Origin: an uncultured bacterium
GTDB lineage: Bacteria; Actinomycetota; Geothermincolia; Geothermincolales; Geothermincolaceae
Assembly (NCBI GenBank): GCA_963765625.1
Contig: CAVXXD010000005.1
Location: 191,113 to 255,112, forward strand
Direction: 5' to 3'
Length of the DNA: 64,000 bases
A program made the position numbers and the translations under genes. This document shows positions 8,965 through 24,884 of this stretch, piece by piece; the first letter of the stretch is position 1; each line of letters starts with the position of its first letter. The notes under the pieces were generated by a model, which saw only the letters and a list, made by a program, of their open reading frames with translations, was not told where the DNA came from and made no database searches.

Positions 8965-10112
8965 TTCCCGTCACCCCTTTCCTCGATGATCCCGGCATCC
9001 TCCTCCAGGACCGTCCGGATGGCTGAGACCATCTCCCGGTCCGGGTTCCGGCATAAAGTCACAGGTTGGCCGATGTTCTCGAGCAGCACCAGGCGCAGTC
9101 CTCCTTCTTCCCGCTTCTTGTCGAAGGACATGCTTTTCACCATGTCCCCGGCAAGCCCTTCCGCGTCAGGCCCCTGTTGTATCAGGCCGGTCAGGCCCAG
9201 GCTTCTCAGCAATTCCATATGATTCAGATAAAGCCCTCTTCCGGCCAACTCGAGTGACTCCGACAGTCGCGCGGCCATGCGCATTCCCACCGCCACGGCT
9301 TCCCCGTGCAGGAAAGAAGAGAAGGCCGTGGCCGTTTCCAGCGCGTGGGCAAAGGTGTGCCCGTAGTTCAGCAGGATGCGGCGCCCACTCATATCTCGCT
9401 CGTCCTCCTCGACGAGCCTGGCTTTGATGGCGGCGCAAGCCGATATGGCCCTGACCAGCTCCACCTCCCGCCGATCCAGGAGCGCCGTCCCCTTCTCCTT
9501 CAGCCAGGCATGAAAGGCAGGGTCGAATACCATGGCATATTTCGCCACTTCTCCGAAGCCTGAGACATATTCCCGCTCCGGCAGGGTGGAAAGGAGGGCG
9601 GTGTCGCAAAAGACGCCGGCCGGCTGGTAAAAAAACCCCACCAGATTCTTCCCCTGAGGCATGTCCACTCCCACCTTACCCCCGATGCTTGAATCCACCA
9701 TGGCCATGAGAGTGGTCGGCACCTGGAAGTATCTGATCCCGCGCAGATAGGAAGCGGCAACGAATCCGCCCAGGTCGCCCGCTACTCCCCCGCCCCAGGT
9801 TATCAGGGCGTCGGAGCGTTCCACCCCCAGGCCCAGCATTTCACGGTATATACGGTTGACGGTGTTGAGGTTCTTGTGTTTTTCACCGGGCGGGAAAAGC
9901 ACCGGGTGGAGACTCCGCCCTCCCGCCCCCAGCCGTTCAGCCAGTTCGCTCCATTGACGGCGGTGCTTCTTCTCCAATGTAGTGTGGCTGATCAGAACGA
10001 CCTTCCGGCATCCGGCCAGGCCTGTCACCGAACCAGACAGGTGCTCCAGCATGCCCGAGCCGATGGTTACGTCGTACTCTCGTCCCGGCAGGTTTACCGC
10101 GATCTTCTCCAT
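8952..10112 (-). CDS. aroB: 3-dehydroquinate synthase
   Basis: 386 aa; DHQ synthase family, Gly-rich NAD-binding region. Confidence 0.9.
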   Translation of the reverse strand: MEKIAVNLPGREYDVTIGSGMLEHLSGSVTGLAGCRKVVLISHTTLEKKHRRQWSELAERLGAGGRSLHPVLFPPGEKHKNLNTVNRIYREMLGLGVERSDALITWGGGVAGDLGGFVAASYLRGIRYFQVPTTLMAMVDSSIGGKVGVDMPQGKNLVGFFYQPAGVFCDTALLSTLPEREYVSGFGEVAKYAMVFDPAFHAWLKEKGTALLDRREVELVRAISACAAIKARLVEEDERDMSGRRILLNYGHTFAHALETATAFSSFLHGEAVAVGMRMAARLSESLELAGRGLYLNHMELLRSLGLTGLIQQGPDAEGLAGDMVKSMSFDKKREEGGLRLVLLENIGQPVTLCRNPDREMVSAIRTVLEEDAGIIEERGDGKWAH

Positions 10113-10603
10113 ATTTCCTCGATCTCCGCCGCTACTTCCCCGGGTTCCCTGCCGTCCGTATCGATGGAATGGTCGGCTGTCTCCCGGTAATACGGTTCTC
10201 TCTCTTCGAGCATCTTCCTGATCTTGTCAAGCCGCCCGTCTCCCGCCAGTAAGGGGCGGGTATTGTCTTTTTCGAGCCGGCGCAGTATCGCCTCCGGTGA
10301 TGCCAGGAGATGGAACACTTCTCCCGAGTTTCGAAGGGCCACCCGGTTGCCGGCCCGCAGTACCGCTCCGCCTCCACAGGAGACGACTTTCGGAGCTTCT
10401 TCGATCAGGCCGTGGATGACCTCGCCCTCCTTATCCCGGAAGGTTTCTTCACCCAGGTCCCGGAATATGTCAGCCACCGTCATGCCCGTGTCTTCCTCCA
10501 CCCTGGAGTCCGTGTCCGCGAAAGGCATTCCCAGGCGGTCAGCCAGGTCCCTGCCCACGCTGCTCTTTCCGGTCCCCATGAAGCCTATGAGAATCAGGTG
10601 CAC
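10094..10603 (-). CDS. aroK: Shikimate kinase
   Basis: P-loop LILIGFMGTGKSSVGRDLA plus shikimate kinase core. The ORF-track 371-aa form runs out of frame through aroC and is rejected. GTG at 10603 gives ~170 aa just after the aroC stop. Confidence 0.8.
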   Translation of the reverse strand: MHLILIGFMGTGKSSVGRDLADRLGMPFADTDSRVEEDTGMTVADIFRDLGEETFRDKEGEVIHGLIEEAPKVVSCGGGAVLRAGNRVALRNSGEVFHLLASPEAILRRLEKDNTRPLLAGDGRLDKIRKMLEEREPYYRETADHSIDTDGREPGEVAAEIEEIWRRSR

Positions 10604-10611
10604 CCCGCGCC

Positions 10612-11772
10612 TCAGAAGGCTCTCAGTGTTTCCAGGTAATGGCGGTACCTGCTTTCCACTTCTTCCATGCAGTCGCCCCCGGTCTTCTCCAGCAAGGCGT
10701 CGGCCAGGACCCAGGCAACCATACTCTCGGCCACGACCCCCCCGGCAGGGACCGCGCAGACATCGGAGCGCTCGGGTAATGCCCCGGCTGCTTCTTTCGT
10801 CTCGATATCCACGGTAGGAGCGGGCTTGCCAAGGGTAGGTATGGGCTTCATGGCCGCCCGAACCCGTATAGTCTCGCCGTTGCTTACACCGCCCTCTATG
10901 CCGCCGCCGTGGTTTTCCAGGCGGTGAAACCCTTCGCCCCGGGTGTAAGCAATCAGGTCCAGAGAAGAGCTCCCTGGAGACAGCGCGAGAGTAAGGCCGT
11001 CTCCTATCCCTACTTCTTTCACGGACTGGATGGACAATAGCGCTTGCCCCATCAATCCGTCCAGCCGCCGGTCCCAGTGAACATGGCTCCCGAGGCCGGG
11101 GGGCACGCTGAATGCAAGCACCTCGAAAACACCGCCCAAAGTATCCCCCGCTTCGGCCGCCTGGTCGATACTCTTTATCATCTCCCGCGACGCACTCTCG
11201 TCCAGGCATCGCAGATCGTTTTCTTCCGCTTTAGCCAGGTCCTCCAGTCCGGGGGCCCGGTTCAGGTCAGCCGCAATGCCTCCGATGGACAGTACGTGTG
11301 AGCGTACCTCGATCCCTAGCCGGCGCAGGATGAGCCTGGCCACGCTGCCGGCGCATACTCTGCCCACGGTTTCCCTGGCCGAAGCTCTCTCCAGGATGTC
11401 CCGGATGTCCCTGGTGCCATATTTCTGTGCTCCCGCCAGGTCGGCATGTCCGGGCCGGGGAGCAGTGACTTTCTTCCCTGTCTTCCCCATCTCCCGGGGT
11501 TCTGCCCCCATCAGCTCGAGCCAGTTGGCGTGGTCCCGGTTCTCAACCCATAAAGTGATGGGGCTTCCCAGCGTGTTTCCGTGACGGACTCCGCTCAAAA
11601 TCTCCACCCGGTCCCCTTCAATGGCCATACGCTTGCCGCGTCCATAACCGCGCCGCCGGCGATCCAGTTCTTCATCGATGTACTCATGCCGCACCCCCAG
11701 GGATGCCGGGCAACCTTCAACGATGGTGCAGACGCCGCGTCCGTGCGACTCTCCCGCGTCAAGAAACCTCAC
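10612..11772 (-). CDS. aroC: Chorismate synthase
   Basis: 386 aa; MRFLDAGESHGRG N-terminus and chorismate synthase signatures. Confidence 0.92.
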   Translation of the reverse strand: MRFLDAGESHGRGVCTIVEGCPASLGVRHEYIDEELDRRRRGYGRGKRMAIEGDRVEILSGVRHGNTLGSPITLWVENRDHANWLELMGAEPREMGKTGKKVTAPRPGHADLAGAQKYGTRDIRDILERASARETVGRVCAGSVARLILRRLGIEVRSHVLSIGGIAADLNRAPGLEDLAKAEENDLRCLDESASREMIKSIDQAAEAGDTLGGVFEVLAFSVPPGLGSHVHWDRRLDGLMGQALLSIQSVKEVGIGDGLTLALSPGSSSLDLIAYTRGEGFHRLENHGGGIEGGVSNGETIRVRAAMKPIPTLGKPAPTVDIETKEAAGALPERSDVCAVPAGGVVAESMVAWVLADALLEKTGGDCMEEVESRYRHYLETLRAF

Positions 11773-11842
11773 TTAACAAGCTCCTCCAAAATAATAAGGC
11801 GGCATTACCGGTAATGCCGCCCCGCCTAGCGTTTTCCGGTTT

Positions 11843-12559
11843 TCAGATCCTTCTCAGCTGGCCTTTCTGCAGTTCGTAGGTCTCGTCTCCGCACATCAGC
11901 ACGAGAACGGTGCTGGACTTGAACTCTACGATCTTATAATTGTTGCCGAAGCTCACGCCCGCTTTTATGTTCTCGTAGCTCGTGTCCCCGACCTTTATCT
12001 TGGCGTATTTGATGCCGCGGCTCTCGAAGATGTCCTGAACCAGTATGACCTGCCCGCTGCTGACCTCCGCCGTCACCGGTACGGTCGAAGAAGGAGTGGT
12101 GGTTGGAGCTGTTGATGAACCTGCCGTTCCCTCGTCCAGATCACGGTTCAGTATCAAGCCTAGTTTTGAGTCCAGTGTCCCTTCGTTATCGACCAGCGCC
12201 CCCACATCACCCATCAGCGGCATGAAGGGGTCGTTCAACACCCACACGTCCGAATAAGGTATCTCTCCCGGATAGGACGACTCGACCAGCTGGATGTTGA
12301 AGTGCTGTTCGATCGTCCGGGATACTATGGCATCCGACTCCAGCGCTCCGGCATTCTGGCCGGGCGCTAAAGACTGCGCGAGCGACCTGTCGATCGTCGT
12401 GTTGTCATTGTCGCCGAAGCTGGTTGAAAGGAACAGGAGTGACGCTATCAGAGCAACGGCAAGACTGCCGAACAGCCTTATCCTTCTGTTGGCCTCGACC
12501 TCCATGGCTTCCTGCTTCTTTCTATTCGCGCTGTTTTCGGTTCTTTTCATCATATCCAC
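11843..12559 (-). CDS. Membrane-anchored hypothetical protein, possible PilP-like pilus assembly component
   Basis: 238 aa; one N-terminal TM helix, Ser/Thr/Pro linker, C-terminal beta-rich ~80 aa; directly follows pilM-pilN-pilO in what looks like the same operon. Confidence 0.35.
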   Translation of the reverse strand: MDMMKRTENSANRKKQEAMEVEANRRIRLFGSLAVALIASLLFLSTSFGDNDNTTIDRSLAQSLAPGQNAGALESDAIVSRTIEQHFNIQLVESSYPGEIPYSDVWVLNDPFMPLMGDVGALVDNEGTLDSKLGLILNRDLDEGTAGSSTAPTTTPSSTVPVTAEVSSGQVILVQDIFESRGIKYAKIKVGDTSYENIKAGVSFGNNYKIVEFKSSTVLVLMCGDETYELQKGQLRRI

Positions 12560-12574
12560 CTCGGCTATACGATT

Positions 12575-13138
12575 CTACTTGGTCAAGAGCAGCTCGACGC
12601 CGTTGGGCGTTGTAAAGAATATCTTGAAAGTAACGGTTATTTGCAGGTAGGGCAAGGTATCTTCGCCGGCCGAGACGGCCAGGATCACTGGCTTTATGGA
12701 GCGAGGCAGTTTTTCAACCTGGTTGAAAAACTCAACCATGTTGAAATAACGGCCGTTTAAAACCGTTGCGATCGAGGATACGTAGAACTTTCCCTGCTGT
12801 ACAGGCATTTCCGGCGTAAGGCTGAAGAAATCCAGCCCTGCTTTTTCCGCGGCGTAGTCCAGCTGCTGGACGACGTCGGCCAGGTCGACGTTCTCGGGTA
12901 TCTTGCCGTCCAGGGCGCTGATCTGGCGCGTGAACTGCTCAGGGTCCTTGTTGTATGCTTCCAGCTGGGCTTGACGGCCCTGTTCTTTGCTGTATTCGGA
13001 TTTTACGCTGCTGATCTGTCCATCAAGGTCGCTGACTTTGTTCTTTTCAGGCAATACGATAAACGCCACTCCGATCGCCAGAAGTATTATGGCTACGACT
13101 ACCACGATAATCAGGTAAAAGCGCGGATTGATTTTCAT
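12575..13138 (-). CDS. pilO: Type IV pilus assembly protein PilO
   Basis: 187 aa; N-terminal TM + coiled coil + PilO-like C-terminal domain; position after pilN. Confidence 0.7.
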   Translation of the reverse strand: MKINPRFYLIIVVVVAIILLAIGVAFIVLPEKNKVSDLDGQISSVKSEYSKEQGRQAQLEAYNKDPEQFTRQISALDGKIPENVDLADVVQQLDYAAEKAGLDFFSLTPEMPVQQGKFYVSSIATVLNGRYFNMVEFFNQVEKLPRSIKPVILAVSAGEDTLPYLQITVTFKIFFTTPNGVELLLTK

Positions 13139-13974
13139 TTCCCACTACCTCCGGTGGTGGTTCCCGTTTCTTCGGCATTCTTAGACTTGAGGTCCCATGG
13201 CGCCTTTTCAGTATTCCAGTAACCATCGATCTCGAAGGCGATGGCCCAGTCCTGATAAGATTCATCCACAACGGTCTGGGTGCCGTTTTCGTCCACTTCT
13301 TCGTGCTGCACCGTTATGGTCACCGGCTCCTGGGTGGAACTCACTATCCACAGGTTGCTCCATTCCTCCATGTTTTGCAGCCTGACATAGAATTCAGCTA
13401 CCTTTGGCTGGCCACGGAAATAGTAGTAGTAGGGATAGGCGTCAAGAAAGCCGTGAGCCTTGAAGTCGCTGGCCCGGGGCAGCCATGTTTGAATGCAGAG
13501 CCAGGCCGGAGCAGCGTATCCAGTCATGGTTATCGAGGGTGACGAACTAGTCTCGGCTCCTCCCTCGAGTGGCGTCGCATCGATATTCAGGCTGGTCAGC
13601 CAGATGGCCGGTGCGCGCGAATTGCTCGCGGTAGTCAAACCTTCAGGCACATAAAGTGCCAGGTCGTTCAGCATGCTCGCCCAGCCGACCCTGCCGACGT
13701 TACAGGCTGCGTAAAGATCCTGGATGCTCTGGAGTTCGGCAGCCTGCTCTTCATAGACCTGGAGCGGCTCCTCGACCTTTTTCTGAAGTTCCTGCAACTC
13801 GGCTTCCTGGTCCTTGAGATCTGCCTCCTTACTGGTAACCTGGTTATGGAAGAAGAGCCAGCCCACTCCCACCAGTACCACTACCGCCAGCAGCGATATA
13901 ACGATCCAGGGAATGAGGTTTACCCTTTCGGCCTTTCCCTTTATCTCGGGAGGAAGCAGGTTTATGCGCGTCAT
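13135..13974 (-). CDS. pilN: Type IV pilus assembly protein PilN (with C-terminal extension)
   Basis: 279 aa; conserved N-terminal INLLPPE motif, TM helix, coiled coil. Confidence 0.75.
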   Translation of the reverse strand: MTRINLLPPEIKGKAERVNLIPWIVISLLAVVVLVGVGWLFFHNQVTSKEADLKDQEAELQELQKKVEEPLQVYEEQAAELQSIQDLYAACNVGRVGWASMLNDLALYVPEGLTTASNSRAPAIWLTSLNIDATPLEGGAETSSSPSITMTGYAAPAWLCIQTWLPRASDFKAHGFLDAYPYYYYFRGQPKVAEFYVRLQNMEEWSNLWIVSSTQEPVTITVQHEEVDENGTQTVVDESYQDWAIAFEIDGYWNTEKAPWDLKSKNAEETGTTTGGSGK

Positions 13975-15044
13975 TATTCCATCACCTCTCTGAGGGCAAG
14001 GCCGATACAGACGGCAACTGAAGGTTCGATGTCGGCCAGCTCTTCAGCCGCGAAGGGAAGCTTGCCCATCTGGAGATTCTGGAAAGGTTTCCCCATCTCC
14101 ACCGGAATCCGCAGCCCGCGGTTCATCTCCTGAGAGAGGTTGAGGGTTTTTGACCCGCTTCCGGAGAGAATGACCTTCGAGAGGTTTCTCTCCTGGGTCT
14201 GCGCGACATAGTAATCGATGGATCGACGGACTTCACCGACGAAATTGAAGATCTCCTGCTGGAGTATCTTGTTCGCCTCTTCGTGGACCTGTTTGCCGGT
14301 CCTGATCTCTTCCGCTTCTCCTGCATCCATGTTCATGCGGTCCATGATGATGGAGGTAAAGTCGTTCCCTCCCCGCAGCAGGAAGCGCGCGAACCTGGGT
14401 ATCCGGTCCTTGAGAATGACTATATTGGTGATACCGGCTCCGATATTGACGATGCAGACGCTCTCTTCCTCCCCCGCCTCTTCCATCAGCTGCACCTCTC
14501 TCTTGATGAGGGAGCGGGGCAGGGCGAACGCCTTGAGGTCGATCGCCACCGGCACCAGGCCGGCGCTCTGCAGGACCCCGACGAAGCTCTGGATCATGTC
14601 CCGGTGGGCTGCCACCAGAAGCACCGTGAGCATCCGTTCTTCTTCGGCCGTCATGAACTCCTCGATGACTTCGAAATCAAGGACGGCATCCTCGGTGGGG
14701 ATGGGTATGAATTCCTGCACCTGGAAGCGGAGAGCCGAATCCAGCTCTTCCCTCTCCATGTACGGCAGTTCGATGGGGCGGACTATCACCTTCTGGTTGG
14801 CGATTCCCAGGATGACCTTTTTCCCTTTCAAGCCGGACCGGGTCCAGAGCTCCTTGAGCAGGTTGGAAAGGGACTCCGGGTCCTCGATCTCGCCGTCACG
14901 GATCACGCCTTCAGGGAGTTGGATGAACCCCAGGTTCGATAGAATGGCATCTCCCCGGTCGATCTCGACCTCCGAGACCTTGACCGAGCTATTGCTGATG
15001 TCCAGGCCAATTGCAGTCGTCTTCTTCTTTGGACTCATCATCAT
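13974..15044 (-). CDS. pilM: Type IV pilus assembly ATPase-like protein PilM (actin/FtsA fold)
   Basis: 356 aa; IGLDISNSSVKV N-terminus and actin-like ATPase fold motifs. Confidence 0.85.
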   Translation of the reverse strand: MMMSPKKKTTAIGLDISNSSVKVSEVEIDRGDAILSNLGFIQLPEGVIRDGEIEDPESLSNLLKELWTRSGLKGKKVILGIANQKVIVRPIELPYMEREELDSALRFQVQEFIPIPTEDAVLDFEVIEEFMTAEEERMLTVLLVAAHRDMIQSFVGVLQSAGLVPVAIDLKAFALPRSLIKREVQLMEEAGEEESVCIVNIGAGITNIVILKDRIPRFARFLLRGGNDFTSIIMDRMNMDAGEAEEIRTGKQVHEEANKILQQEIFNFVGEVRRSIDYYVAQTQERNLSKVILSGSGSKTLNLSQEMNRGLRIPVEMGKPFQNLQMGKLPFAAEELADIEPSVAVCIGLALREVME

Positions 15045-15062: not shown

Positions 15063-15242
15063 TCACGAACCCTTGGTGAGGTATTTATTGACATCGCTCT
15101 CTTTGATCCGGTAATTCTTGCCTACACGAATGGCCGGGATCTGGCCTCCCTTTACCAGGCGGTAGACCGTCATATTGGATACCCTTAGTATATCGGCCAC
15201 TTCGTTCACCGTCAGCAGTTTGTTGCTAATCTTTTCTCTCAT
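15063..15242 (-). CDS. Small helix-turn-helix DNA-binding protein, excisionase/MerR-like HTH_17 family (not in ORF track)
   Basis: 59 aa translated by hand: MREKISNKLLTVNEVADILRVSNMTVYRLVKGGQIPAIRVGKNYRIKESDVNKYLTKGS; GGAG SD 7 nt upstream; stop 18 nt before pilM. Confidence 0.7.
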   Translation of the reverse strand: MREKISNKLLTVNEVADILRVSNMTVYRLVKGGQIPAIRVGKNYRIKESDVNKYLTKGS

Positions 15243-15450: not shown

Positions 15451-15479
15451 ATTATAATTTAATATCAGTAGTTGTCAAT
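15451..15479 (-). promoter_or_regulatory. Sigma70-type promoter (TTGACA-17-TATAAT) for the HTH-pilMNO operon
   Basis: Minus-strand -35 TTGACA (plus coords 15474-15479), 17-nt spacer, perfect TATAAT (15451-15456), in an AT-rich island. Confidence 0.5.
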
Positions 15480-15490
15480 AGTTTATTTTA

Positions 15491-16270
15491 CTACCGCATC
15501 ATTGAGCGATATAGCTCGATTATCCACCCCCCCACAAATATCGATATCCAACTTCCTGCGATCAGATACGGTCCAAATGGTATCTTCGACTTCCACTCCT
15601 TTTTCCCTGTAAGAATTGGTGGGATTGACGCAATGCTTCCCAGAAGGAAACCGAGAAAGAGCGCGGGGATGACGTCCCAGCCCAGCACAACGCCTGAAAA
15701 TGCCATCAACTTGGCGTCACCCATGCCCATCCCTTTCGGATACAGCAGAGAGATCAGGCCCAGCGGCCCCCCGCCGATGAGCAGGCCGGCCCCCTGTTCC
15801 ACCAGGACCTGGCTGTCCCAACGGACCAGGGCGATCACTCCCACGTAGACCACGGCGATCAGAAGGGAAGGAAGGATGATGGCATTGGGGATTATCAGCT
15901 CCTTCAGGTCGATCATGCCGACCATCAGGGTCACCGTGACGAAAAAGAGATAGAGCGGCAGGAAGGCGTCCCATCCGAACCCGAAATGGGCGAAGACCGC
16001 CACGTACATGGCCGCGTTGGTGAACTCGACCAGGAGGTATACGGGGGAGATGCGGCAACCGCAACGGCGGCAGCGTCCGCGCAGTAACAGCCAGCTCAGC
16101 AGGGGTATATTGTCGTACCATTCGATGGGCGTGTCGCAACCCGGGCAGAACGACCTCGGCTTGACCACGGACAGGCCGCGAGGAACCCGGTAGATCACGA
16201 CATTGGCGAAACTGCCGATGGCCGAGCCCAGCAGGAACAGAACCACTGAAAAAAAGATAGCAGGTAACAT
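15491..16270 (-). CDS. pilD: Prepilin peptidase PilD (A24 family) with tetracysteine zinc motif
   Basis: CPGC...CRRCGC motif and 8 TM core. The ORF-track start 16348 (TTG) lies inside the pilA1 terminator hairpin, so the start is set at ATG 16270 (MLPAIFF...). TATAAT sits 9 nt upstream of that ATG, suggesting a leaderless mRNA. Confidence 0.85.
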   Translation of the reverse strand: MLPAIFFSVVLFLLGSAIGSFANVVIYRVPRGLSVVKPRSFCPGCDTPIEWYDNIPLLSWLLLRGRCRRCGCRISPVYLLVEFTNAAMYVAVFAHFGFGWDAFLPLYLFFVTVTLMVGMIDLKELIIPNAIILPSLLIAVVYVGVIALVRWDSQVLVEQGAGLLIGGGPLGLISLLYPKGMGMGDAKLMAFSGVVLGWDVIPALFLGFLLGSIASIPPILTGKKEWKSKIPFGPYLIAGSWISIFVGGWIIELYRSMMR

Positions 16271-16310
16271 GTTGGCCCAATTATAAGGAGGGCAGGTGAC
16301 AAAATCCCTG

Positions 16311-16338
16311 GCATCGAAAAGGGCCCCTGGGTGGGGCC
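16311..16338 (-). terminator. Rho-independent terminator downstream of pilA copy 1
   Basis: Minus-strand GGGCCCC-ACCCA-GGGGCCC hairpin followed by TTTTCG. Confidence 0.5.
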
Positions 16339-16374
16339 CTTTCTTCAATAACCGTTCTTCACACTCATCAGCTC

Positions 16375-16698
16375 TTAATCGCCATAAGTGTGTCCCAGAT
16401 CACAGACCGCGTACGGCGGCGTGCCGGTTACGACTTCGTAGGTGCCCCCAGCGGGGCACTCCGGCCAGTCCTTGAGGAGCTCGGGCACGTAGTCGGCGGA
16501 ATCCAGGGAGTAATCGTCAGCCCCCGCCCGATACTGTATGACGCAGCCGTCGATGGTCCTAAGGTTGTCCTTGCAGGCGCCTTCCTCCGCATTGCTCTGC
16601 GCGCTGAAGAACACCGGCACGGCAATGGCTACCAGTATACCGATGATAAGAATAACGACCATCAACTCGATGAGGGTGAACCCTTCCTGCTTTTTCAT
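16375..16698 (-). CDS. pilA: Type IV major pilin PilA, copy 1
   Basis: 107 aa; MKKQEG|FTLIELMVVILIIGILVAIAVP canonical prepilin signal; Cys pairs in C-terminal globular domain; strong GGAGGTG SD. Confidence 0.88.
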   Translation of the reverse strand: MKKQEGFTLIELMVVILIIGILVAIAVPVFFSAQSNAEEGACKDNLRTIDGCVIQYRAGADDYSLDSADYVPELLKDWPECPAGGTYEVVTGTPPYAVCDLGHTYGD

Positions 16699-16726
16699 AT
16701 CTCTTTCACCTCCTCCCTCTAGCCTT

Positions 16727-16755
16727 CAAACAGAAAAGGCCCCTAAATGGGGCCC
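16727..16755 (-). terminator. Rho-independent terminator downstream of pilA copy 2
   Basis: Minus-strand GGGCCCC-ATTTA-GGGGCC hairpin followed by TTTTCTGTTT. Confidence 0.5.
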
Positions 16756-16790
16756 TTCCTTCAATAACCGTTCTTCACACTCATCAGCTC

Positions 16791-17114
16791 TTAATCGCCA
16801 TAAGTGTGTCCCAGATCACAGACCGCGTACGGCGGAGTGCCGGTAACGATCTCATAGGTGCCGCCAGCGGGGCACTCCGGCCAGTCCTTGAGGAGCTCGG
16901 GCACGTAGTCACCGGAATCCAGTGAGTAATCGTCAGCCCCGGCACGGTACTGCATTACGCAGCCGTCGATGGTCCTCAGGTTGTCCTTGCAGGCGCCTTC
17001 CTCCGCATTGCTCTGCGCGCTGAAGAACACCGGCACGGCAATGGCTACCAGGATACCGATGATAAGAATAACGACCATCAACTCGATGAGGGTGAACCCT
17101 TCCTGCTTTTTCAT
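16791..17114 (-). CDS. pilA: Type IV major pilin PilA, copy 2
   Basis: 107 aa from ATG 17114 with the same GGAGGTG SD; the ORF-track upstream extension is ignored; 3 aa substitutions relative to copy 1 (V/M, A/G, V/I). Confidence 0.88.
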   Translation of the reverse strand: MKKQEGFTLIELMVVILIIGILVAIAVPVFFSAQSNAEEGACKDNLRTIDGCVMQYRAGADDYSLDSGDYVPELLKDWPECPAGGTYEIVTGTPPYAVCDLGHTYGD

Positions 17115-17233
17115 ATCTCTTTCACCTCCTCCCGTCACAATCTCTTTCCTGTTCACTTTCTTTAATAACAATATCGGGCTTGCCAGGAAATACCTTTAGG
17201 GTATTTTTCGTCTTCTGGTGAGACTAGACCCAT

Positions 17234-18460
17234 CTAGCTGCCGCCGGCGAACTGGCCGATGAGGGAGAAAATGGGCATGTAAAGGGAGATGACGATGGTT
17301 CCGACAACCCCTCCCAGGAGGACCATCATCAGGGGCTCCATCAGGGAGGTCAGAGACTCCACCGCTGCTTCGATCTCGGAGTCATAGAAGTCGGCGACCT
17401 TGTTGAGCATGGTATCCAACGCCCCGGTCTCTTCGCCGATGGCCAGCATCTGGGTGACCATGGGTGGGAACAGCGGGTTAGTTGCCAGCGGCTGTGCGAT
17501 GGACTCTCCCTCCTTGACGCCCATGCGAACGCTTTCGACGGCATCCGCGACCAGCCTGTTCCCGACGGTCTCGGAGGTGATCTCGAGGGCTTGCAGGATG
17601 GGTACGCCGGAAGAGACCAGGGTTCCCAGGGTACGGGAGAACCGGGACATGGCCATCTTGTGGAAGAGCGTGCCGAACACCGGCATTTTCAGCTTGAAAG
17701 CGTCCACTTTCCTTCTGCCGCTATCGGTTTTCTTCCATCTCCTGAAGAAATAGATGCTGAAGCCTACCACGAAGTAGAAGACCAGGCCGGCTAGGCTCTT
17801 GATGAAGTTGCTCAGGTTGATGATGAACTTGGTCAGTGCCGGCAGCGTCGCCCCCATCTGCTCGAACATGTTCACGAAGGTGGGGACCACCACTACCAGC
17901 ATGACTACCAGCAGATGCATGGAGATACCCAGCATGGCGATGGGGTAGGTCATGGCTGATTTTATTTTACGCCTGATGTTGTCTTCGTTCTCCAGGGTCA
18001 GGGCTACACGCAGCAGGACGTCGTCGAGCACGCCGCCGATCTCGCCGGCCTTGACCATGCTGGTATAAAGCTGTTTGAAGGTGTCGGGGTGCTTGCTCAT
18101 GGCCTCGGACAGGGAACGGCCCATCTCCACCTCGTGCTGGACATCCTGCACGACGCTGGCCAGTACCGGGCTGTCTGTCTGCTCGGCCAGAATGGCCAGG
18201 CATTTTACCAGCGGCAGGCCGGCATTGATCATGGTCGCGAACTGGCGGGTGAATACCGTTACGTCCTTGCCCTTGACCTTGGGCTTGAAGATGTGGAGTT
18301 CCTTCTTGCCCATGGCTGCCTTTTCCTTGTCTACCCCGATGACGAAGTAGCCCATCTGGCGCAGCCGCTGCGATACGTTGGCTTCGCTGTCCGCTTCCAG
18401 GGTGCCGGTTATGATCTTTCCCTGGCGGTCTCTCACCCTATAGGAATAAGTATCTGCCAT
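17234..18460 (-). CDS. pilC: Type IV pilus inner-membrane platform protein PilC (GspF family)
   Basis: 408 aa; two GspF-like repeats and TM segments. Confidence 0.9.
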   Translation of the reverse strand: MADTYSYRVRDRQGKIITGTLEADSEANVSQRLRQMGYFVIGVDKEKAAMGKKELHIFKPKVKGKDVTVFTRQFATMINAGLPLVKCLAILAEQTDSPVLASVVQDVQHEVEMGRSLSEAMSKHPDTFKQLYTSMVKAGEIGGVLDDVLLRVALTLENEDNIRRKIKSAMTYPIAMLGISMHLLVVMLVVVVPTFVNMFEQMGATLPALTKFIINLSNFIKSLAGLVFYFVVGFSIYFFRRWKKTDSGRRKVDAFKLKMPVFGTLFHKMAMSRFSRTLGTLVSSGVPILQALEITSETVGNRLVADAVESVRMGVKEGESIAQPLATNPLFPPMVTQMLAIGEETGALDTMLNKVADFYDSEIEAAVESLTSLMEPLMMVLLGGVVGTIVISLYMPIFSLIGQFAGGS

Positions 18461-18532: not shown

Positions 18533-18561
18533 ATCTAAACCAATAATATCACTTTTGTCAA
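18533..18561 (-). promoter_or_regulatory. Putative promoter/operator upstream of pilC sharing the TAAACTATTGACAA..TGATATTA motif with the pilM-operon promoter
   Basis: Minus-strand TTGACA (plus 18556-18561) with a weak -10 (TTAGAT) 17 nt downstream; 14/14 identity to the motif at 15472-15485. Confidence 0.3.
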
Positions 18562-18614
18562 TAGTTTACAAAATCAACAGAATTTTCAGGGCCGCAACGG
18601 TTTCTTTGTTTATT

Positions 18615-19358
18615 CTAGTCACCTGCTTGATCTTCCTCCCCGGAAACAGGTTCAGCAATGGTTTTCCGCAATTCACTGATCCGGTCCTCCAGAAGATTGA
18701 TCTTGGTGACAACGAACTTCCTGGCGGCCTGGTCCAGCCCTTCACGCATCAAGGCCAAACGGTAGTAGTCCAGTTGCTCCCGCAGGGCAGCAATGGCTCC
18801 GGCCGGGTCTCCCAGGGCGTTGCTGGTCACGGCGATCCCGGCGGTCAGGTACATCATGTCCACGAATTCCAGCCGCTTGCCGATGGCTTCCCGGTAGGCC
18901 TCCCGGGCTTGTTGGTATTTTTCCTGCCTCATGTAGAGGTCGGCCAGGCTGGCGTAAAGATCGCCGTTGTCCGGGTTGTTGGCTATCCCCTCCAGGGTGA
19001 AATCTATGGCCTCCTGCTCGCTGCCGGCGTAGAAGATGGTCGCTCCGCCCACGTAATACGCGTCGATATAGTGGGGGTCGAGGTAGCTTATCAGCTTATA
19101 ATACGGGATCAGCTCGGATTCAGAGCTGAGGCTTTCATAATAGCCGTGATGGAGGCTTTCCGTCCTGATCCAGAGGACGTAGGCCAGGAACTGCCTGACA
19201 CCACCGAGAAAGTCCAGGTAGTTGACGCTGGCGGAAGCCCCCTCGCCGGCCCGGCTTTCCTCGCCGCCCAGGTCCGACCGCCCCAAAGCCACCTGTGCGA
19301 AAGAGCCCGCCAGGATAAGAGCGGCCAGGATGACGCAGAGAACAGCCCTCTTCCTCAA
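18615..19358 (-). CDS. Secreted TPR-repeat protein (PilG-like accessory partner of the ABC transporter?)
   Basis: 247 aa; signal peptide (MRKRAVLCVILAALILAGSFAQVALG), TPR-like Tyr/Ala-rich helical repeats; start overlaps the permease stop. Confidence 0.55.
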   Translation of the reverse strand: MRKRAVLCVILAALILAGSFAQVALGRSDLGGEESRAGEGASASVNYLDFLGGVRQFLAYVLWIRTESLHHGYYESLSSESELIPYYKLISYLDPHYIDAYYVGGATIFYAGSEQEAIDFTLEGIANNPDNGDLYASLADLYMRQEKYQQAREAYREAIGKRLEFVDMMYLTAGIAVTSNALGDPAGAIAALREQLDYYRLALMREGLDQAARKFVVTKINLLEDRISELRKTIAEPVSGEEDQAGD

Positions 19359-20140
19359 ATCTCCTTCCTCCGGAATATCTCTCCACCGATGAGGATGAAG
19401 ACGGTGGAGAAGACGGCTGCCAGGATGGCCAGCATGAGCATGTCCAGGGCGGTGACGGGGTAGGTCCTCTCCCCGTGCGCCACCGTCTCGTTTATGTTGA
19501 AGAAGCTCAGGTTGGGCAGGATGTAATAGAAGAGCCCGGCTATCCCCCGCAGCAGGAAGTTGTGGGCACCGTCGGCCATTATGTCGTGCAGGAACTCACC
19601 TTTCAGGTGGCAGACCACGTAGAAGGCGGTGGTCCCGAAGAAGGAGACCACCGGGCTGGCGAAGGTGGTCAGCATGAGGGTGAAGGCCGCCAGTATGGCC
19701 GACTCCATGTATATGGCCAGCACTGCTTTGTACAGCCCGGGGTTGAAGACGTTGAACTTGAGATAGATAAAAGCCACCGCCACCAGCCAGGAGAAGGCCA
19801 GGGTGACCGCCATCACCAGCATCACCCCGGTATAACGGCCAGTGTAATACGTCCAGCGGGAGATCGGCTTGGAGAGGATGTAGTAGACGGCCCGCCGCTC
19901 GACTTCCACGGAGATGGCCATTGCCGCCAGGACCACGGTCAGCACCAGGGACATCAGGGAGATGAGGCCGAGGAAGCCGTCGCGCATGAGGTCTATCTGC
20001 ACGCCCACCCGCGCGCTGGGCAGGACCGGCACCATCAGGACCAGTATCAGGGTAATGGCCACCAGCGCATAATAGAGCTTGCGGTGTACGGCATCTTCGA
20101 TGACGCTGCGCACGATGGCGGTGAAAGCCCGGAGCCTCAT
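19355..20140 (-). CDS. ABC-2 type transporter permease (PilI-like)
   Basis: 262 aa from ATG 20140 (MRLRAFTAIV...), ATGA overlap with the ATPase stop; 6 TM; the ORF-track 364-aa N-terminal extension is rejected. Confidence 0.7.
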   Translation of the reverse strand: MRLRAFTAIVRSVIEDAVHRKLYYALVAITLILVLMVPVLPSARVGVQIDLMRDGFLGLISLMSLVLTVVLAAMAISVEVERRAVYYILSKPISRWTYYTGRYTGVMLVMAVTLAFSWLVAVAFIYLKFNVFNPGLYKAVLAIYMESAILAAFTLMLTTFASPVVSFFGTTAFYVVCHLKGEFLHDIMADGAHNFLLRGIAGLFYYILPNLSFFNINETVAHGERTYPVTALDMLMLAILAAVFSTVFILIGGEIFRRKEI

Positions 20141-21066
20141 TCCCTTTCCCTCCTGCTGCTGACGTGCGCCAGAAAATACTCCTCCAGGGTGATCCTTCGA
20201 GGCTTGACCTCGAGGATGCGCGCCGGCTTCGTCGACAGTTCCCGCAGGAATAGATCGAGATTGGGGCGGGGCACGATGAACCCGGGAGCGCCTTCCGTCT
20301 TCCTGGCCCCCAGCAGCTCGAGCTTTTCTGCCTCCAGTTCTTCTTCTCCATCCAGGGTGACCTGATAAGTCTCCTCCCGGCCCAGCAGGTCGGATATGGA
20401 GCCCTGGGCCACCTCCCTGCCCCGGTCGATGATGCAGAGGTGGTCGCATATCTCTTCCACTTCGGAGAGCTGGTGGGAGCTTAAAAGAATGGTGGTCCCC
20501 TGCTCACTGGTATCCTGCAGGATCTTCCGGACCTCCATCTTTCCCAGGGGATCAAGCCCGGTGGAGGGTTCATCCAGGATCAGCAGCGAGGGCTGGTTTA
20601 ACAGCGCCTGGGCGATGCCCAGCCTCTGCAGCATACCTTTGGAGAAACGGCTGAGTGCCAGGTCGCGCTCCCTGGAAAGCCCTACTAGAGACAGTAGGTG
20701 GGAGACACGCACGTCAATCTCGGGATCCGGCATGTACATCAGCCTGCCCAGGTAGCGCAGGATACGGTTGGGCGTCAGGTAATAATAGAAATACGGCTGT
20801 TCCGGCAGGAACCCCATGCGCTGCCGCGCCCGGGGCTCGCGCCAGTCGTCCCCGAAGATGCGCACCTCCCCTTCGTCTGGAACGAGGAAGTCCATGATTA
20901 TCTTGAGGGTGGTGGTTTTACCCGCTCCGTTGGGGCCCAGCAAGCCCATCACCTTTCCGGCAGGCAGAGTGAAGCTCAGCCCGTTCAAGGCCTGACGGCG
21001 CTCCTTGTGAAAACCTATGCGATAGCTCTTGCCCAGGCTCTTGACGTCAAGTGCCACATCGGACAT
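20137..21066 (-). CDS. ABC transporter ATP-binding protein (PilH-like)
   Basis: 309 aa; Walker A GPNGAGKTT, ABC signature, Walker B ILDEP. Confidence 0.88.
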   Translation of the reverse strand: MSDVALDVKSLGKSYRIGFHKERRQALNGLSFTLPAGKVMGLLGPNGAGKTTTLKIIMDFLVPDEGEVRIFGDDWREPRARQRMGFLPEQPYFYYYLTPNRILRYLGRLMYMPDPEIDVRVSHLLSLVGLSRERDLALSRFSKGMLQRLGIAQALLNQPSLLILDEPSTGLDPLGKMEVRKILQDTSEQGTTILLSSHQLSEVEEICDHLCIIDRGREVAQGSISDLLGREETYQVTLDGEEELEAEKLELLGARKTEGAPGFIVPRPNLDLFLRELSTKPARILEVKPRRITLEEYFLAHVSSRRERE

Positions 21067-21083: not shown

Positions 21084-22208
21084 TCAGCCGATCAGACGTT
21101 GCATCTCGTCACGGTTGGCGCAGCGGGCCATGGCTACCTCGAAAGATACGATGCCGTTCTTGTAGAGAGCGGCGATAGAGTGGTCCATAGTCTGCATGCG
21201 ATATTGTCCGCCCGCCTGCATGGCTGAGTAGATCTGGTGGGTTTTGCCTTCCCGGATCATGTTGCGGATGGCCGAGGTGGCGATCATGATCTCCACCGCC
21301 GGAACCCGGCCCTTGCCGTCACGTGTAGGCAGGAGCTGCTGGGTGATGATGGCCTGCGTCGTGCCCGCGAGCTGGATGCGCACTTGCGCTTGCTGGTAGG
21401 TGGGGAAGACGTCGATGATGCGGTCGATGGTCTGGGGGGCATCCTGGGTATGCAGGGTGGCGAATACCAGGTGGCCGGTTTCCGCCGAGGTTAAAGCGGT
21501 GGATATGGTTTCCAGGTCTCGCATCTCACCCACCAGGATAACATCGGGGTCCTGGCGCAATACATACTTCAAGGCATTGCCGAAAGAATGGGTGTCCGCG
21601 CCGACTTCGCGCTGGTTGATGATGCAGCGTTTGTGAACGTGGAGGAACTCGATAGGGTCCTCGACGGTGATGATGTGGTCGTTGCGGGTCTCGTTGATCA
21701 GGTCGATAATGGCGGCCAGCGTGGTGGATTTGCCCTGGCCGGTGGGCCCCGTGACCAGGACGAAACCGCGTGGCAACTGGGTGAGGTCCTTGATTACCGG
21801 AGGCATGTTTAGCTCCTCCACCGTCTTGATGCGATAAGGGATGATGCGGAAGGCGGCGCCCAGGCTGTTTCTCTGGAAGTAGGCGTTGACCCTGAACCGG
21901 GCGCTGCCCGGCACCGAGTAGGAGAGGTCGTATTCCAGGTTGGCTTCCAGCTGCTCCCTCTGGCGGGCCGTGAGGATGCTGTAGATCATGTCCCGCGTGT
22001 CGTTGCCGGTAAGCCTGGGGTACTCCTCGATCCGCTGCAGTACGCCGTTGATGCGCATGACCGGTGGTGCTCCCACGGTTATGTGTAGGTCGGAAGCCCC
22101 ACGGACCAGGACTTCTTCCAGCATTTCGTTGATATCGATCTTCTTCTTGGTCGTGGTCAATTCAAAAACCTCCCTTATCCGGCAAGCCGCCTCGAAGACA
22201 TTCGACAA
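21084..22208 (-). CDS. pilT: Twitching motility / pilus retraction ATPase PilT
   Basis: 374 aa; ASDLHI, Walker A GPTGQGKSTT, PilT family motifs. Start could instead be the internal MLEEVL... Confidence 0.9.
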   Translation of the reverse strand: MSNVFEAACRIREVFELTTTKKKIDINEMLEEVLVRGASDLHITVGAPPVMRINGVLQRIEEYPRLTGNDTRDMIYSILTARQREQLEANLEYDLSYSVPGSARFRVNAYFQRNSLGAAFRIIPYRIKTVEELNMPPVIKDLTQLPRGFVLVTGPTGQGKSTTLAAIIDLINETRNDHIITVEDPIEFLHVHKRCIINQREVGADTHSFGNALKYVLRQDPDVILVGEMRDLETISTALTSAETGHLVFATLHTQDAPQTIDRIIDVFPTYQQAQVRIQLAGTTQAIITQQLLPTRDGKGRVPAVEIMIATSAIRNMIREGKTHQIYSAMQAGGQYRMQTMDHSIAALYKNGIVSFEVAMARCANRDEMQRLIG

Positions 22209-22251: not shown

Positions 22252-23910
22252 CTACATAACAACCCTCAACACTTCATCCAGTGAAGTCACGCCCTGCAGC
22301 ACCTTGGCAAAACCGTCCTCTCTCAGGGTTACCATTCCCTCGGCTTTCGCCAGTTTGGCGATCTCGATATGCGGAGCGTTCTTGGCCACCAGTTTCTCGA
22401 TCTCCTCGCTGACCCTCAATATCTCGTAGACTCCGACCCGCCCCTTGAACCCGGTATTGTTGCAGGCTGCGCAACCGACCGGTTTATAGAGCGTCATTTT
22501 TTCCTGTATGGGAAACCTGATCTCCTGGAGGTATTTCTCCTCCGGCTCGATGGGCTCCTTGCAGCGCTCGCATAACCTGCGGGTAAGACGCTGAGAGGTG
22601 ATGCAATCGATGGCTGAGGCGATGAGGAAAGGTTCGATGCCCATCTCCAGCAGGCGGGTCAGGGCGCTGGGGGCATCATTGGTGTGCAGGGTAGCCAGCA
22701 CCAGGTGCCCGGTGAGGGCCGACTCGATGGCGATCTGGGCCGATTCCTGGTCACGGATCTCACCAACCAGGATGATGTCGGGGTCACAGCGGAGGAAAGA
22801 GCGCAGGGCTCCCGCGAAGGTCAGCCCGGCCTGGTAATGCACCTGCACCTGGTTGATAAGGGGAAGCCGGTACTCCACCGGGTCCTCCACCGTCATGATG
22901 TTCTTGGCGATATCGTTCAGGACGTTAAGGGTGGCGTACAGGGTGGTGGTCTTGCCGCTGCCCGTAGGCCCGGTGACCATGATGGCGCCATAGGGCTTGG
23001 TAAAGCTTTCCTTGAAGTTGTCGAGAGATTCGGGCGTAAAGCCCAGGTCCGACAGGGTCAACAGCGCATTGCTCTTGTCCAGGATGCGCAGCACCACTTT
23101 CTCGCCGTGGATGGTGGGGAGAGACGCGACACGGATATCCACGGGCTTCCCCAGCACGTCCATGGCGGCCCTGCCGTCCTGGGGCAGTCGCTTCTCGGCG
23201 ATGTTCATGTCCGCCATGACCTTGATCCTGGCAACCACGCCCGGCTGGAGCTTCTTGGGAGAACGCCTGATCTGGTGGAGCACGCCGTCTATGCGGTAGC
23301 GGATACGTACGTCGTCCTCCATGGGCTCGATGTGGATGTCGCTGGCCCTTTCCCGAACGCCCTCGCTGATCAGCAGGTTCACGTACTTGACGATCGGGGC
23401 CTCAGCCGCCGCGTCGTCGCTCTCGTCGATATCTTCGATGTCGTCATCAAGCTCGCTCAGGTCGATGTTGGTATCGGTTCGGCAGAATCGATTGATGGCG
23501 CCGATGATGTCGTCCTTGGTGCTGACGGCAGGCTCGACTTCCAGGCCGGTCATGATACGTATGTCGTCCAGGGCAAAGACGTTGGTGGGGTCGGCCATGG
23601 CCACCAGCAGCTTGCCGTCCTCTATGGAGATGGGGATTATGTTGTATTTGCGGGCCGTCTCGGCGTCCACCAGGGACGTGGCGGCGATGTCCACCTGGTA
23701 ACTGCTGAGGTCGACGTACTTCATGCCGATCTGCTGTGCCAGGATGGCGGTGAGTGCCCCTTCGCTGACTATCTTCAGCTCTATGAGTACGCGGCCCAGA
23801 GACTTGCCGCTGGCTTGCTGCTTCTCCAGCGCTTCGGCCAGCTGGTCTTCGTTTATGATCTGGTTCTGAAGCAGGATCTGTCCGAGTTTGTCCTGTTTAG
23901 GCTTTTCCAT
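22252..23910 (-). CDS. pilB: Type IV pilus assembly ATPase PilB (GspE family, N-terminal GSPII domain)
   Basis: 552 aa; N-terminal GSPII-type domain, Walker A GPTGSGKTTT, tetracysteine motif. Confidence 0.92.
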   Translation of the reverse strand: MEKPKQDKLGQILLQNQIINEDQLAEALEKQQASGKSLGRVLIELKIVSEGALTAILAQQIGMKYVDLSSYQVDIAATSLVDAETARKYNIIPISIEDGKLLVAMADPTNVFALDDIRIMTGLEVEPAVSTKDDIIGAINRFCRTDTNIDLSELDDDIEDIDESDDAAAEAPIVKYVNLLISEGVRERASDIHIEPMEDDVRIRYRIDGVLHQIRRSPKKLQPGVVARIKVMADMNIAEKRLPQDGRAAMDVLGKPVDIRVASLPTIHGEKVVLRILDKSNALLTLSDLGFTPESLDNFKESFTKPYGAIMVTGPTGSGKTTTLYATLNVLNDIAKNIMTVEDPVEYRLPLINQVQVHYQAGLTFAGALRSFLRCDPDIILVGEIRDQESAQIAIESALTGHLVLATLHTNDAPSALTRLLEMGIEPFLIASAIDCITSQRLTRRLCERCKEPIEPEEKYLQEIRFPIQEKMTLYKPVGCAACNNTGFKGRVGVYEILRVSEEIEKLVAKNAPHIEIAKLAKAEGMVTLREDGFAKVLQGVTSLDEVLRVVM

Positions 23911-24784
23911 CCCGTCCTCCCGCGCACAACCTTCCGCTCATCAATTCCTCCTCGAGGGCACGACGCATCTTGGCCAGGGGCGGCTCTGTCCCCGTCCATA
24001 TGCGGAAAGATCCCGCCGCCTGGTACAGGAGCATGGGGCGGCCGTTCACGGCCATCGCCCCCCTCTTCTCGGCCTCCCGCAAGAAGGCCGAGCGGTGCGC
24101 CAGGTAGCCCAGGTCCAGTGCTACCTGCCCCGGAGTGAACATGCCGTAGTCGACGGGCAGTTCACCCGGTACGTCCCGATCAAGGGGAGTGGAGTTCACT
24201 ATACAGGAGCATTCCCGCAATACGCGAGCTCCAGCTTCCTCATATTCCTGGATGTATATTTCGTCAAAGATGCCTTTACTCTTTAAGATTCCTCGCAATT
24301 CCTCCGCCCTTTCCCTGCTGCGGTTGAAAATATGGAGCGAGTCGGCCCCCATTCGGGATAGCGCCAGGGCGGCCGCCCTGGCCGCTCCGCCCGCGCCGAT
24401 CAGGAACGCCGGCCCCGCCGGGTCGGCCCCTGCTTCCCGCAGAGAGCGCAGGAGGCCTTCGGCGTCGGTGTTGTAACCGATCATCATGTCCCCCTCGTAA
24501 CTGACGGTGTTCACTGCGCCCAGGACCAGGGCGTCATCTCTCACCTCGTCCACCAGCCCACAGGCTTCCACCTTATGGGGGATGGTTACGTTCAAGCCGC
24601 GGAAGCCGGAGGAGCGCAACCCCTCAAGCGCCGGCTTCAGACAACCCGGCTCCACCCTGAGGGGCAGGTAGGCCCAGTTCAGGCCGAGAGCCTCGAAGGC
24701 GGCATTGTGCATGGCGGGAGAAGGCGATCTGCCGATATCCCCGCCCACCAGGCCCGTCAGAACCGTCTGTCCGTCTATCCTCAT
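23897..24784 (-). CDS. aroE: Shikimate dehydrogenase
   Basis: ~295 aa from ATG 24784 (MRIDGQTVLTGLVGGDIGRSPSPAMHN...). The ORF-track 363-aa form overlaps the GTPase gene and is rejected. NADP-binding GAGGAARA. Confidence 0.8.
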   Translation of the reverse strand: MRIDGQTVLTGLVGGDIGRSPSPAMHNAAFEALGLNWAYLPLRVEPGCLKPALEGLRSSGFRGLNVTIPHKVEACGLVDEVRDDALVLGAVNTVSYEGDMMIGYNTDAEGLLRSLREAGADPAGPAFLIGAGGAARAAALALSRMGADSLHIFNRSRERAEELRGILKSKGIFDEIYIQEYEEAGARVLRECSCIVNSTPLDRDVPGELPVDYGMFTPGQVALDLGYLAHRSAFLREAEKRGAMAVNGRPMLLYQAAGSFRIWTGTEPPLAKMRRALEEELMSGRLCAGGRDGKA

Positions 24785-24884
24785 GTGGTACTCCGGGTTC
24801 CTTTCTTTCCTTTGATTATACTCTCCGAGCACAGCCCGGCAGACCGGAGAAATAGCGGTCACGGTACGAGATTTTCCGGAGGTC

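Follow-up and report, generated by a model that had tools for sequence, protein, structure and literature searches.

A tandem pair of near-identical type IVa pilin genes in an uncultured actinobacterium, most likely homogenised at their ends by gene conversion

Two complete pilin genes in tandem

The 64-kb stretch of DNA analysed here (the window) carries two pilA genes side by side within a type IVa pilus cluster of an uncultured actinobacterium, with copy B upstream and copy A downstream (Table 1). We consider it probable, at about 70%, that the pair is a genuine, lineage-specific tandem duplication of type IVa pilA, in which the ends of the copies have evolved in concert, a single promoter is shared and the products act as near-equivalent, redundant subunits. 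Tandem Repeats Finder described the segment from 16316 to 17133 as 2.0 copies of a 416-nucleotide (nt) period with 94% matches and 0% indels, in agreement with an earlier note on this DNA, which had reported two tandem units of ~416 bp. A repeat search and blastn aligned 16318-16717 with 16734-17133 at 94.75% identity across 400 nt, and a repeat of 400 nt at 95% identity is beyond chance origin. No third copy or partial pilin cassette was found elsewhere in the 64-kb window by blastn and tblastn.

Each copy was a 324-nt open reading frame (ORF) of 107 codons followed by TAA. The two prepilins shared 97% amino acid identity, with residues 1-53 identical and exactly three residues differing between copy A and copy B: I54/M54, A68/G68 and V89/I89. 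The earlier note had the number right, as well as the A/G and V/I pairs, but what it read as V/M is really I/M at position 54. All three replacements were conservative and lay at positions that vary within the family.

The duplicated unit comprised the ribosome-binding site, the coding sequence (CDS), the 3' untranslated region (3'UTR) and a hairpin; the putative promoter was not included. The Shine-Dalgarno sequence GGGAGGAGGTG stood before each copy, as previously claimed, and formed the exact 5' edge of the unit. In an upstream alignment, the copy B Shine-Dalgarno sequence was kept in five orthologous loci. A longer, TTG-started ORF of 126 residues for copy B was rejected as an over-extension, because copy A and all the orthologues share the same Shine-Dalgarno and ATG context. 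The 16-nt junction between the copies showed neither microhomology nor longer homology to the outer flanks, with 6/16 and 2/16 positions matching the candidate flanks, which is the chance level. The repeat search also detected neither inverted repeats nor elements of the invertase type in the surroundings of the pair.

Divergence between the copies

The two coding sequences differed at 16 nt, of which 13 were synonymous and 3 nonsynonymous, giving a synonymous divergence (dS) of 0.20, a nonsynonymous divergence (dN) of 0.012 and a dN/dS of 0.06. The silent differences were spread unevenly. The dS value was 0.035 for codons 1-45 and 0.46 for codons 46-93, and codons 94-107 together with the first 34 nt past the stop contained no differences at all. 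The unit had near-identical ends, covering its first ~155 nt and last ~80 nt, around a central part of ~140 nt in which about one third of the silent sites differed. A silent-site scan statistic placed 12 of 14 differences within CDS nt 138-279 (p≈0.007 by a permutation that corrects for boundaries chosen after the fact). The pilA 3'UTR was not conserved among orthologues, so that constraint does not explain its identity in the two copies. This mosaic identity most likely reflects an older duplication whose ends were homogenised by gene conversion, a form of concerted evolution. Ongoing gene conversion, as the earlier note had proposed, fits the significantly mosaic silent differences. The recent duplication that it also proposed holds in part only, and is too simple for a gene whose central third has reached a dS of 0.46.

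Both copies were intact, and the pattern of substitutions indicates that both are under strong purifying selection. Because this selection was seen in the unconverted centre, it indicates that both products matter. In comparison with four outgroups, copy B kept the ancestral state at codons 21, 54, 56, 84 and 89, and agreed with three of them at codon 46 as well; copy A kept the ancestral state at codon 87 only. Of the two, copy A thus seems to have diverged further. A loss of codon quality in copy A, as a sign of lower expression, was not seen: six codons favoured each copy.

Identity and modelled structure of the pilins

Both copies contained the processing site MKKQEG/FTLIELMVVILIIGILVAIAVPVFF, with a six-residue leader ending in Gly, Phe at +1, Glu at +5 and then a hydrophobic stretch of ~20 residues. 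The Pfam N_methyl profile matched copy B (E=3.1e-10) and copy A (E=3.2e-10) above its curated cut-off. Removal of the leader leaves a mature protein of 101 residues from copy A, and likewise from copy B. The AlphaFold2 model of copy A, built with 105 homologues (mean confidence score, pLDDT, 89.8), consisted of a helix at residues 9-59 and strands at 87-90 and 96-99. The modelled head was unusually small, with two short strands, and the model had the lollipop fold. The best solved fold match was Thermus thermophilus PilA4 (6xxd_A, TMq 0.62, 30% identity), with a weak Foldseek E-value of 0.057. The family profile matched Geobacter PilA-N, M. xanthus PilA, S. sanguinis PilE1 (8pfb_G, E=2.5e-14) and other pilins. 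The processing motif, the fold and the neighbouring PilD, PilB and PilC genes place both proteins among the type IV pilins with a class III signal peptide, of the T4a type.

The pair were the sole small pilins between pilC and pilD and had a strong Shine-Dalgarno sequence and a hairpin; minor-pilin-like ORFs lay elsewhere. From this position and size we infer that the pair is the sole major-pilin candidate of a complete type IV pilus cluster, which bears out the earlier description of a duplicated major pilin gene. The three substitutions each fell in a separate tryptic peptide. With the copy B form first, the first pair was TIDGCVMQYR (M54) versus TIDGCVIQYR (I54). The second, AGADDYSLDS[A/G]DYVPELLK, comprised AGADDYSLDSGDYVPELLK versus ...SADYVPELLK, and the C-terminal one was DWPECPAGGTYE[V/I]VTGTPPYAVCDLGHTYGD, with EIV versus EVV.

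The cysteines formed a pattern of their own. Among the 105 homologues, C42 (104/105), C99 (105/105) and H103 (100/105) were nearly invariant, and position 81 was Cys in 89 and Glu in 15. Since three conserved Cys residues occur with a conserved His, and one Cys is swapped for Glu in some homologues, the pattern suggests a structural metal site, perhaps for zinc, that ties the head to the alpha-1 helix, rather than disulfides. Both window pilins had an extra Cys52, which was found in 3/105 family sequences.

Promoter and hairpins

An upstream alignment of the window with four orthologous loci revealed two blocks, TAAAG-like and CCGATA-like, at fixed spacing ~55-80 nt before the ATG. In the window they were arranged as TAAAG-N16-CCGATAT from 17198 to 17172, outside the duplicated unit, and in the orthologous locus L081 their distance to the ATG was unchanged. 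Looser versions occurred in the other three (CCGAAA in L082, TTAAG in L084 and TCAAG in L001), and L084 also had a perfect TATAAT overlapping its CCGATA block. The pattern TAAA-N16-18-CCGATA had a single match in the 64-kb window, against 0.12 expected by chance. The blocks resemble what we take to be the sigma-28/FliA/WhiG type, presumably with the consensus TAAA-N15-GCCGATAA, from which the window differs by a spacer 1 nt longer; this resemblance serves as a lead only. The conserved blocks hint at transcription of the pilin genes by an alternative sigma factor in the clade. Upstream of copy B, TGGCA...TTG was considered as a sigma-54 site and rejected by eye, the spacing being ~3 nt too long.

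Within 16300-17140, a promoter scan of the minus strand gave no promoter-like site, and the TAAAG and CCGATA blocks were absent from the junction between the copies. Known RNA families gave only sub-threshold chance matches in 16200-17300, and no riboswitch. Because the promoter blocks lie outside the repeat and are absent from the junction, copy A, which has its own ribosome-binding site and hairpin, apparently lacks a promoter and probably depends on read-through of the hairpin that follows copy B (hairpin B).

Both hairpin B and the hairpin after copy A (hairpin A) were GC-rich, with stems of 10-12 pairs, and their loops and stems differed from each other. When the 75 nt past each stop were folded, the minimum free energies were -27.0 kcal/mol for copy A and -28.2 kcal/mol for copy B, with z-scores against shuffles of -2.9 and -4.7. 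The position and structure of the pilA 3' hairpin were kept in four orthologous loci despite sequence change, and in an alignment of six sequences the pair changes preserved the stem. The U-tract of copy B was UUUUCUGUUUG; that of copy A was a short UUUUCGAUG, in which three U residues were able to pair into the stem. The two hairpins are plausible intrinsic terminators. The earlier note had assigned each copy its own terminator, and GC-rich hairpins with different loops do follow both; the terminator scan and the short U-tract of copy A leave that assignment incomplete. The same note had proposed a dosage strategy for the pilus subunit. With the conserved promoter-like blocks outside the unit, no recognisable promoter for copy A and a hairpin between the copies, this simple double-dose argument is weakened.

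The downstream pilD gene seems to be expressed separately. Its ATG at 16270 was preceded, 9 nt upstream, by a perfect TATAAT at 16280-16285. Because TATAAT-N9-ATG was conserved in four orthologous loci (L081, L082, L084 and L001), the pilD mRNA is probably leaderless and made from its own promoter right after hairpin A. A TTG start for pilD at 16348 overlapped hairpin A and was judged an over-extension, probably wrong.

Orthologous loci and origin of the duplication

The closest pilin orthologues were single genes between pilC and pilD: P0002 (77% identical, L081), P0003 (71%, L082 and L083), P0004 (66%, L084) and the pilin of L001 (64%). Since these four closest orthologous loci hold a single pilA in the pilC-pilD slot, the duplication is, on this comparison, lineage-specific and arose within the lineage of this genome.

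The arrangement itself is not new. Two contigs beyond a sample of 84 related loci had tandem pilins of the same family in the same gene order, pilB-pilT-pilC-pilA(n)-pilD-HTH-pilM-pilN-pilO. One of them, L107 (GCA_040961035.1), contained two tandem pilins that were 76% identical, and a JGI contig (3300075153) contained three to four at the same slot, two of them 71% identical. Among the 84 loci, no near-identical tandem pilins were found, none being above 60% amino acid identity. The pairs in L107 and the JGI contig are old, with 71-76% amino acid identity and, in L107, ~68% of silent sites differing, compared with 97% amino acid identity in the window. As judged from these identities, the window pair is the youngest or most homogenised case among those compared. 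The tandem duplications in the window and in these relatives arose independently.

The L107 copies differed from the window pair in their control regions as well. Each had its own long leader with a riboswitch of the cyclic di-GMP-I (c-di-GMP-I) type, whereas the window pair has one promoter region and no riboswitch. On the L107 contig (JBFOMV010000248.1), these riboswitches lay at 3103-3177 for the first pilin and 3835-3909 for the second; the first aptamer matched RF01051 at 54 bits, and the match of the second, at 66 bits, was to RF03167, the c-di-GMP-I-GGC variant. The paralogous pilins of L107 may respond to different ligands or thresholds.

In the locus of a close relative, L002 (CAZGWK010000039.1, PilC 77% identical), pilC was followed directly by the HTH gene and pilM at 6221-6495, and neither pilA nor pilD was present at that locus. 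No pilin was found by tblastn in L003-L005, L007 and L063. Judging by these loci, gain, loss or relocation within the clade appears to affect pilA and pilD together, as one module.

The pilus cluster and neighbouring genes

The pair and its neighbouring pilus genes, all on the minus strand, make up a complete type IVa cluster (Table 1).

Table 1. Coordinates of the pilin pair, its signals and the surrounding pilus genes in the window
Feature	Position	Strand	Basis and remarks
pilB	22252-23910	minus	T2SSE and MshEN domains
pilT	21084-22208	minus	
ABC ATPase, permease and TPR insert between pilT and pilC	18615-21066	minus	
pilC (platform protein)	17234-18460	minus	Pfam T2SSF E=8.4e-68; directly upstream of the pilin pair
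Putative pilA promoter TAAAGGTATTTCCTGGCAAGCCCGATA	17172-17198	minus	Blocks conserved upstream of orthologous pilA; outside the duplicated unit
Shine-Dalgarno GGGAGGAGGTG of copy B	17123-17133	minus	Sequence and alignment
pilA copy B	16791-17114	minus	ORF and translation; upstream copy, adjoins pilC and the promoter
Hairpin after copy B (GGAAGGGCCCC-AUUUA-GGGGCCUUUUC, then UGUUUG)	16733-16759	minus	RNA fold and orthologue conservation; putative partial terminator between the copies
B-to-A junction, 16 nt, CTGTTTGAAGGCTAGA (minus-strand letters)	16718-16733	minus	Period-416 match string and alignment
Shine-Dalgarno GGGAGGAGGTG of copy A	16707-16717	minus	Sequence and alignment
pilA copy A	16375-16698	minus	ORF and translation; downstream copy, adjoins pilD
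Hairpin after copy A (AAAGGGCCCC-ACCCA-GGGGCCCUUU, short U tail)	16318-16342	minus	RNA fold and orthologue conservation; putative terminator before pilD
pilD (prepilin peptidase)	15491-16270	minus	Pfam A24_N_bact E=2.2e-33, Peptidase_A24 E=4.5e-11
HTH_17 gene	15063-15242	minus	
pilM	13974-15044	minus	
pilN	13135-13974	minus	By position, no Pfam match
pilO	12575-13138	minus	
GspH-like minor pilin	7721-8269	minus	
936-residue pilin-like ORF	4914-7724	minus	N-terminal motif scan only, no Pfam match

Two further promoter-like sites were seen in the cluster. A perfect sigma-70 consensus (TTGACA-16 nt-TATAAT, 12/12) lay on the minus strand at 15451-15478, between the pilD stop and the HTH_17 gene that precedes pilM-pilN-pilO, and a promoter-like site lay at 18543-18571 upstream of pilC. 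These two sites suggest that the cluster is divided into at least four transcription units. The insert between pilT and pilC consisted of an ATP-binding cassette (ABC) transporter ATPase (20137-21066), a multi-pass membrane protein and a tetratricopeptide repeat (TPR) protein (18615-19358). An ABC ATPase and a DUF2705 permease occupied the same position in L084 (1291-2758), and the insert may be a conserved accessory module of the pilus system.

Shikimate-pathway genes were interleaved with the pilus genes at 8521-12559 and 23897-24988. An aroE-like ORF, recognised by translation only, lay upstream of pilB. The stretch between pilO and the minor pilins contained a type II dehydroquinase identified by Pfam (8521-8964), an ORF resembling 3-dehydroquinate synthase (8952-10112), and ORFs whose translations resemble chorismate synthase and shikimate kinase. 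This mixture recalls the pilMNOPQ-aroK-aroB linkage of proteobacteria. A 6S RNA (RF00013) was also present on the plus strand at 41023-41211, as a full-length match of 81 bits.

The PilC of the window was 71-79% identical to PilC of uncultured Actinomycetota metagenome-assembled genomes (MAGs); its identity to PilC of Ca. Solincola tengchongensis, of the class Ca. Geothermincolia, was 73%. The host genome is that of an uncultured member of Actinomycetota related to Ca. Geothermincolia.

Proposed mechanism and alternative explanations

The duplication might work as follows. A single promoter upstream of copy B would drive transcription, and hairpin B would stop part of the transcripts. Read-through transcripts would extend over copy A as far as hairpin A, and pilD would then be transcribed from its own promoter. 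PilD would cleave both prepilins after Gly6. Because residues 7-53 are identical in the two mature proteins, pilins A and B could enter the same filament as near-equivalent subunits, in the manner of the S. sanguinis PilE1/PilE2 heteropolymer. The net effect would be redundancy, with at most a modest rise in pilin supply, and not surface variation.

Several observations weigh against this interpretation. When all 21 differences of the 400-nt unit were considered, hairpin loop included, their clustering was not significant (max-chi permutation p=0.10). The junction fits neither outer flank and so points to no mechanism for the duplication. The consensus terminator scan of the minus strand called neither hairpin A nor hairpin B. 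If termination at hairpin B were efficient, copy A would be left nearly silent, a poor fit with its purifying selection unless conversion alone keeps it intact. The only recorded source of both pilins is one contig of 460,508 bp, and the copy number rests on that one assembly. Finally, the isolated differences at CDS nt 63 and 138 are set apart from the central cluster by identical runs of 74-81 nt, and a short-read assembly may mis-phase them.

The last two points raise the question of an assembly artefact, in which variants of one pilA from two strains were placed in tandem or the genome does not have exactly two copies. The contig is of the metagenome type and was recorded once only. The copy A protein was 100% identical to the database protein P0001, which comes from the same single contig; exact-sequence look-up found no second sample or other contig with either pilin or P0001, and the best match in a metagenome scan with the pilin was 59% identical, with no close relative and no second example of the junction. 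The exact shared runs of 74-81 nt also exceed common short-read k-mer sizes. However, a join of strain variants needs a junction made of flanking sequence, and the actual one is unique and unlike both the pilC-side and the pilD-side flanks. The two hairpins differ in loop and stem, and more diverged tandem pilins occupy the same slot in relatives. The longest exact run shared by the copies was 81 nt, and without a longer one paired reads or k>81 would resolve the region. As no exact run is longer and the junction is foreign to a single-copy locus, a collapse or mis-join of strain variants is unlikely, and we give an artefact of either kind very little weight. The mosaic could alternatively have come from a recent duplication followed by allele import, in which one copy received a new central segment of ~140 nt by homologous recombination with DNA of a related strain. 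This would produce the same pattern, and a low dN/dS in the centre is just what orthologous alleles under purifying selection should show. Related small pilins, such as the fold match Thermus PilA4, serve DNA uptake, which would make recombination with a foreign allele plausible. Yet no donor-like allele is known, the centres of the two copies lie at similar distances from the nearest outgroup (65% for A and 69% for B against L081), and copy A carries a derived change outside the centre, at codon 21. Import is unlikely on balance, though it is the closest of the alternatives and the one we would rank highest.

The remaining alternatives concern the roles of the copies. Copy A may be a poorly expressed spare, if hairpin B terminates efficiently and conversion from copy B keeps a promoter-less copy intact. 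No promoter-like site of its own was found for it, the U-rich tail is longer on hairpin B than on hairpin A, and most of the derived changes are in copy A (five informative codons and codon 46, against one in copy B). Nevertheless, the unhomogenised centre still shows 3 nonsynonymous against 12 synonymous changes, which indicates selection on both products, and the codon quality of copy A is undiminished. We consider this improbable, somewhat more so than import. Rather doubtful, and placed after the spare-copy explanation, is the idea that selection keeps two subunit variants (M54/G68/I89 and I54/A68/V89), with the central ~140 nt shielded from the conversion that homogenises the ends and the hairpin between the copies serving as a tunable attenuator that sets the pilin ratio in a heteropolymeric filament. 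If true, this uncultured lineage of Actinomycetota would possess a minimal type IV pilus built from two subunits at a controlled ratio. The least likely explanation, slightly below an assembly artefact, is functional specialisation or a variation system, in which the pilins have distinct roles or the surface (as antigen or phage receptor) varies by recombination or copy-number change. RecA acts readily on direct repeats that share identical tracts >70 nt. A few residues can also matter: PilA3 of S. sanguinis CGMH010, 94% identical to PilA1, cannot replace it (PMC11121087). Here, however, the dN/dS of 0.06 reflects only three conservative replacements among hydrophobic or small residues, both copies are complete and translatable, the window holds no silent or truncated cassettes, and no inverted repeats or invertase-type elements surround the pair. 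The earlier suggestion of a substrate for antigenic variation finds no support in such full-length, conservatively differing copies. We thus retain a duplication homogenised at its ends, with near-equivalent products, as the preferred explanation.

Comparison with known pilin systems

The closest described analogue is in S. sanguinis. There, two major pilins of comparable abundance are mixed stochastically within a single filament, and the corresponding genes, pilE1 and pilE2, are adjacent, have almost identical N-terminal halves and encode products that are both processed by PilD (PMC4832360, PMC10628169). Strain CGMH010 has three tandem pilin genes, of which PilA1 and PilA3 are 94% identical and yet not interchangeable (PMC11121087). 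Like these, the window pair consists of adjacent, same-strand, full-length genes, here for the candidate major pilin, in a monoderm type IVa cluster, with a near-identical alpha-1 N-terminal segment. By its gene arrangement, the pair is of the S. sanguinis type with two major pilins. It differs in that the window pilins are smaller (101 residues mature with a 6-residue leader, versus ~139 with an 18-residue leader) and more alike (97% amino acid identity), with their differences mid-protein and not in the C-terminal third. The host also differs, being an Actinomycetota MAG.

In the pilE/pilS system of Neisseria, silent cassettes without promoters and truncated at the 5' end donate sequence by conversion, which yields amino acid diversity in an exposed hypervariable region. 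Gene conversion between repeated pilin sequences would be common to both systems. In the window, however, the copies are complete and the conversion, if it occurs, homogenises them, with a dN/dS of 0.06. There were no silent truncated cassettes in the window, and the changes were 13 synonymous versus 3 conservative nonsynonymous ones, so that a system of the pilE/pilS type was not found. The major pilin of the wide type IV pilus of Thermus thermophilus, PilA4, is likewise small and combines a long alpha-1 helix with a minimal head, but it is not reported as a tandem duplicate.

For annotation, the two pilA genes are real paralogues that should not be collapsed, and the pilD start belongs at 16270. 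The duplication opens no new question, and there is no sign of an antigenic-variation mechanism. The conserved Cys3-His pattern of these very small pilins, the conserved, putatively sigma-28-like pilA promoter, the probably leaderless pilD and the c-di-GMP riboswitches of L107 may serve students of type IV pili in uncultured Actinomycetota more than the duplication itself. Taken as the preferred explanation has it, the pair is an actinobacterial addition to the few known duplicated major pilins of the S. sanguinis type. It would show concerted evolution in a pilin pair, together with independent, repeated duplication at one chromosomal slot across the clade.

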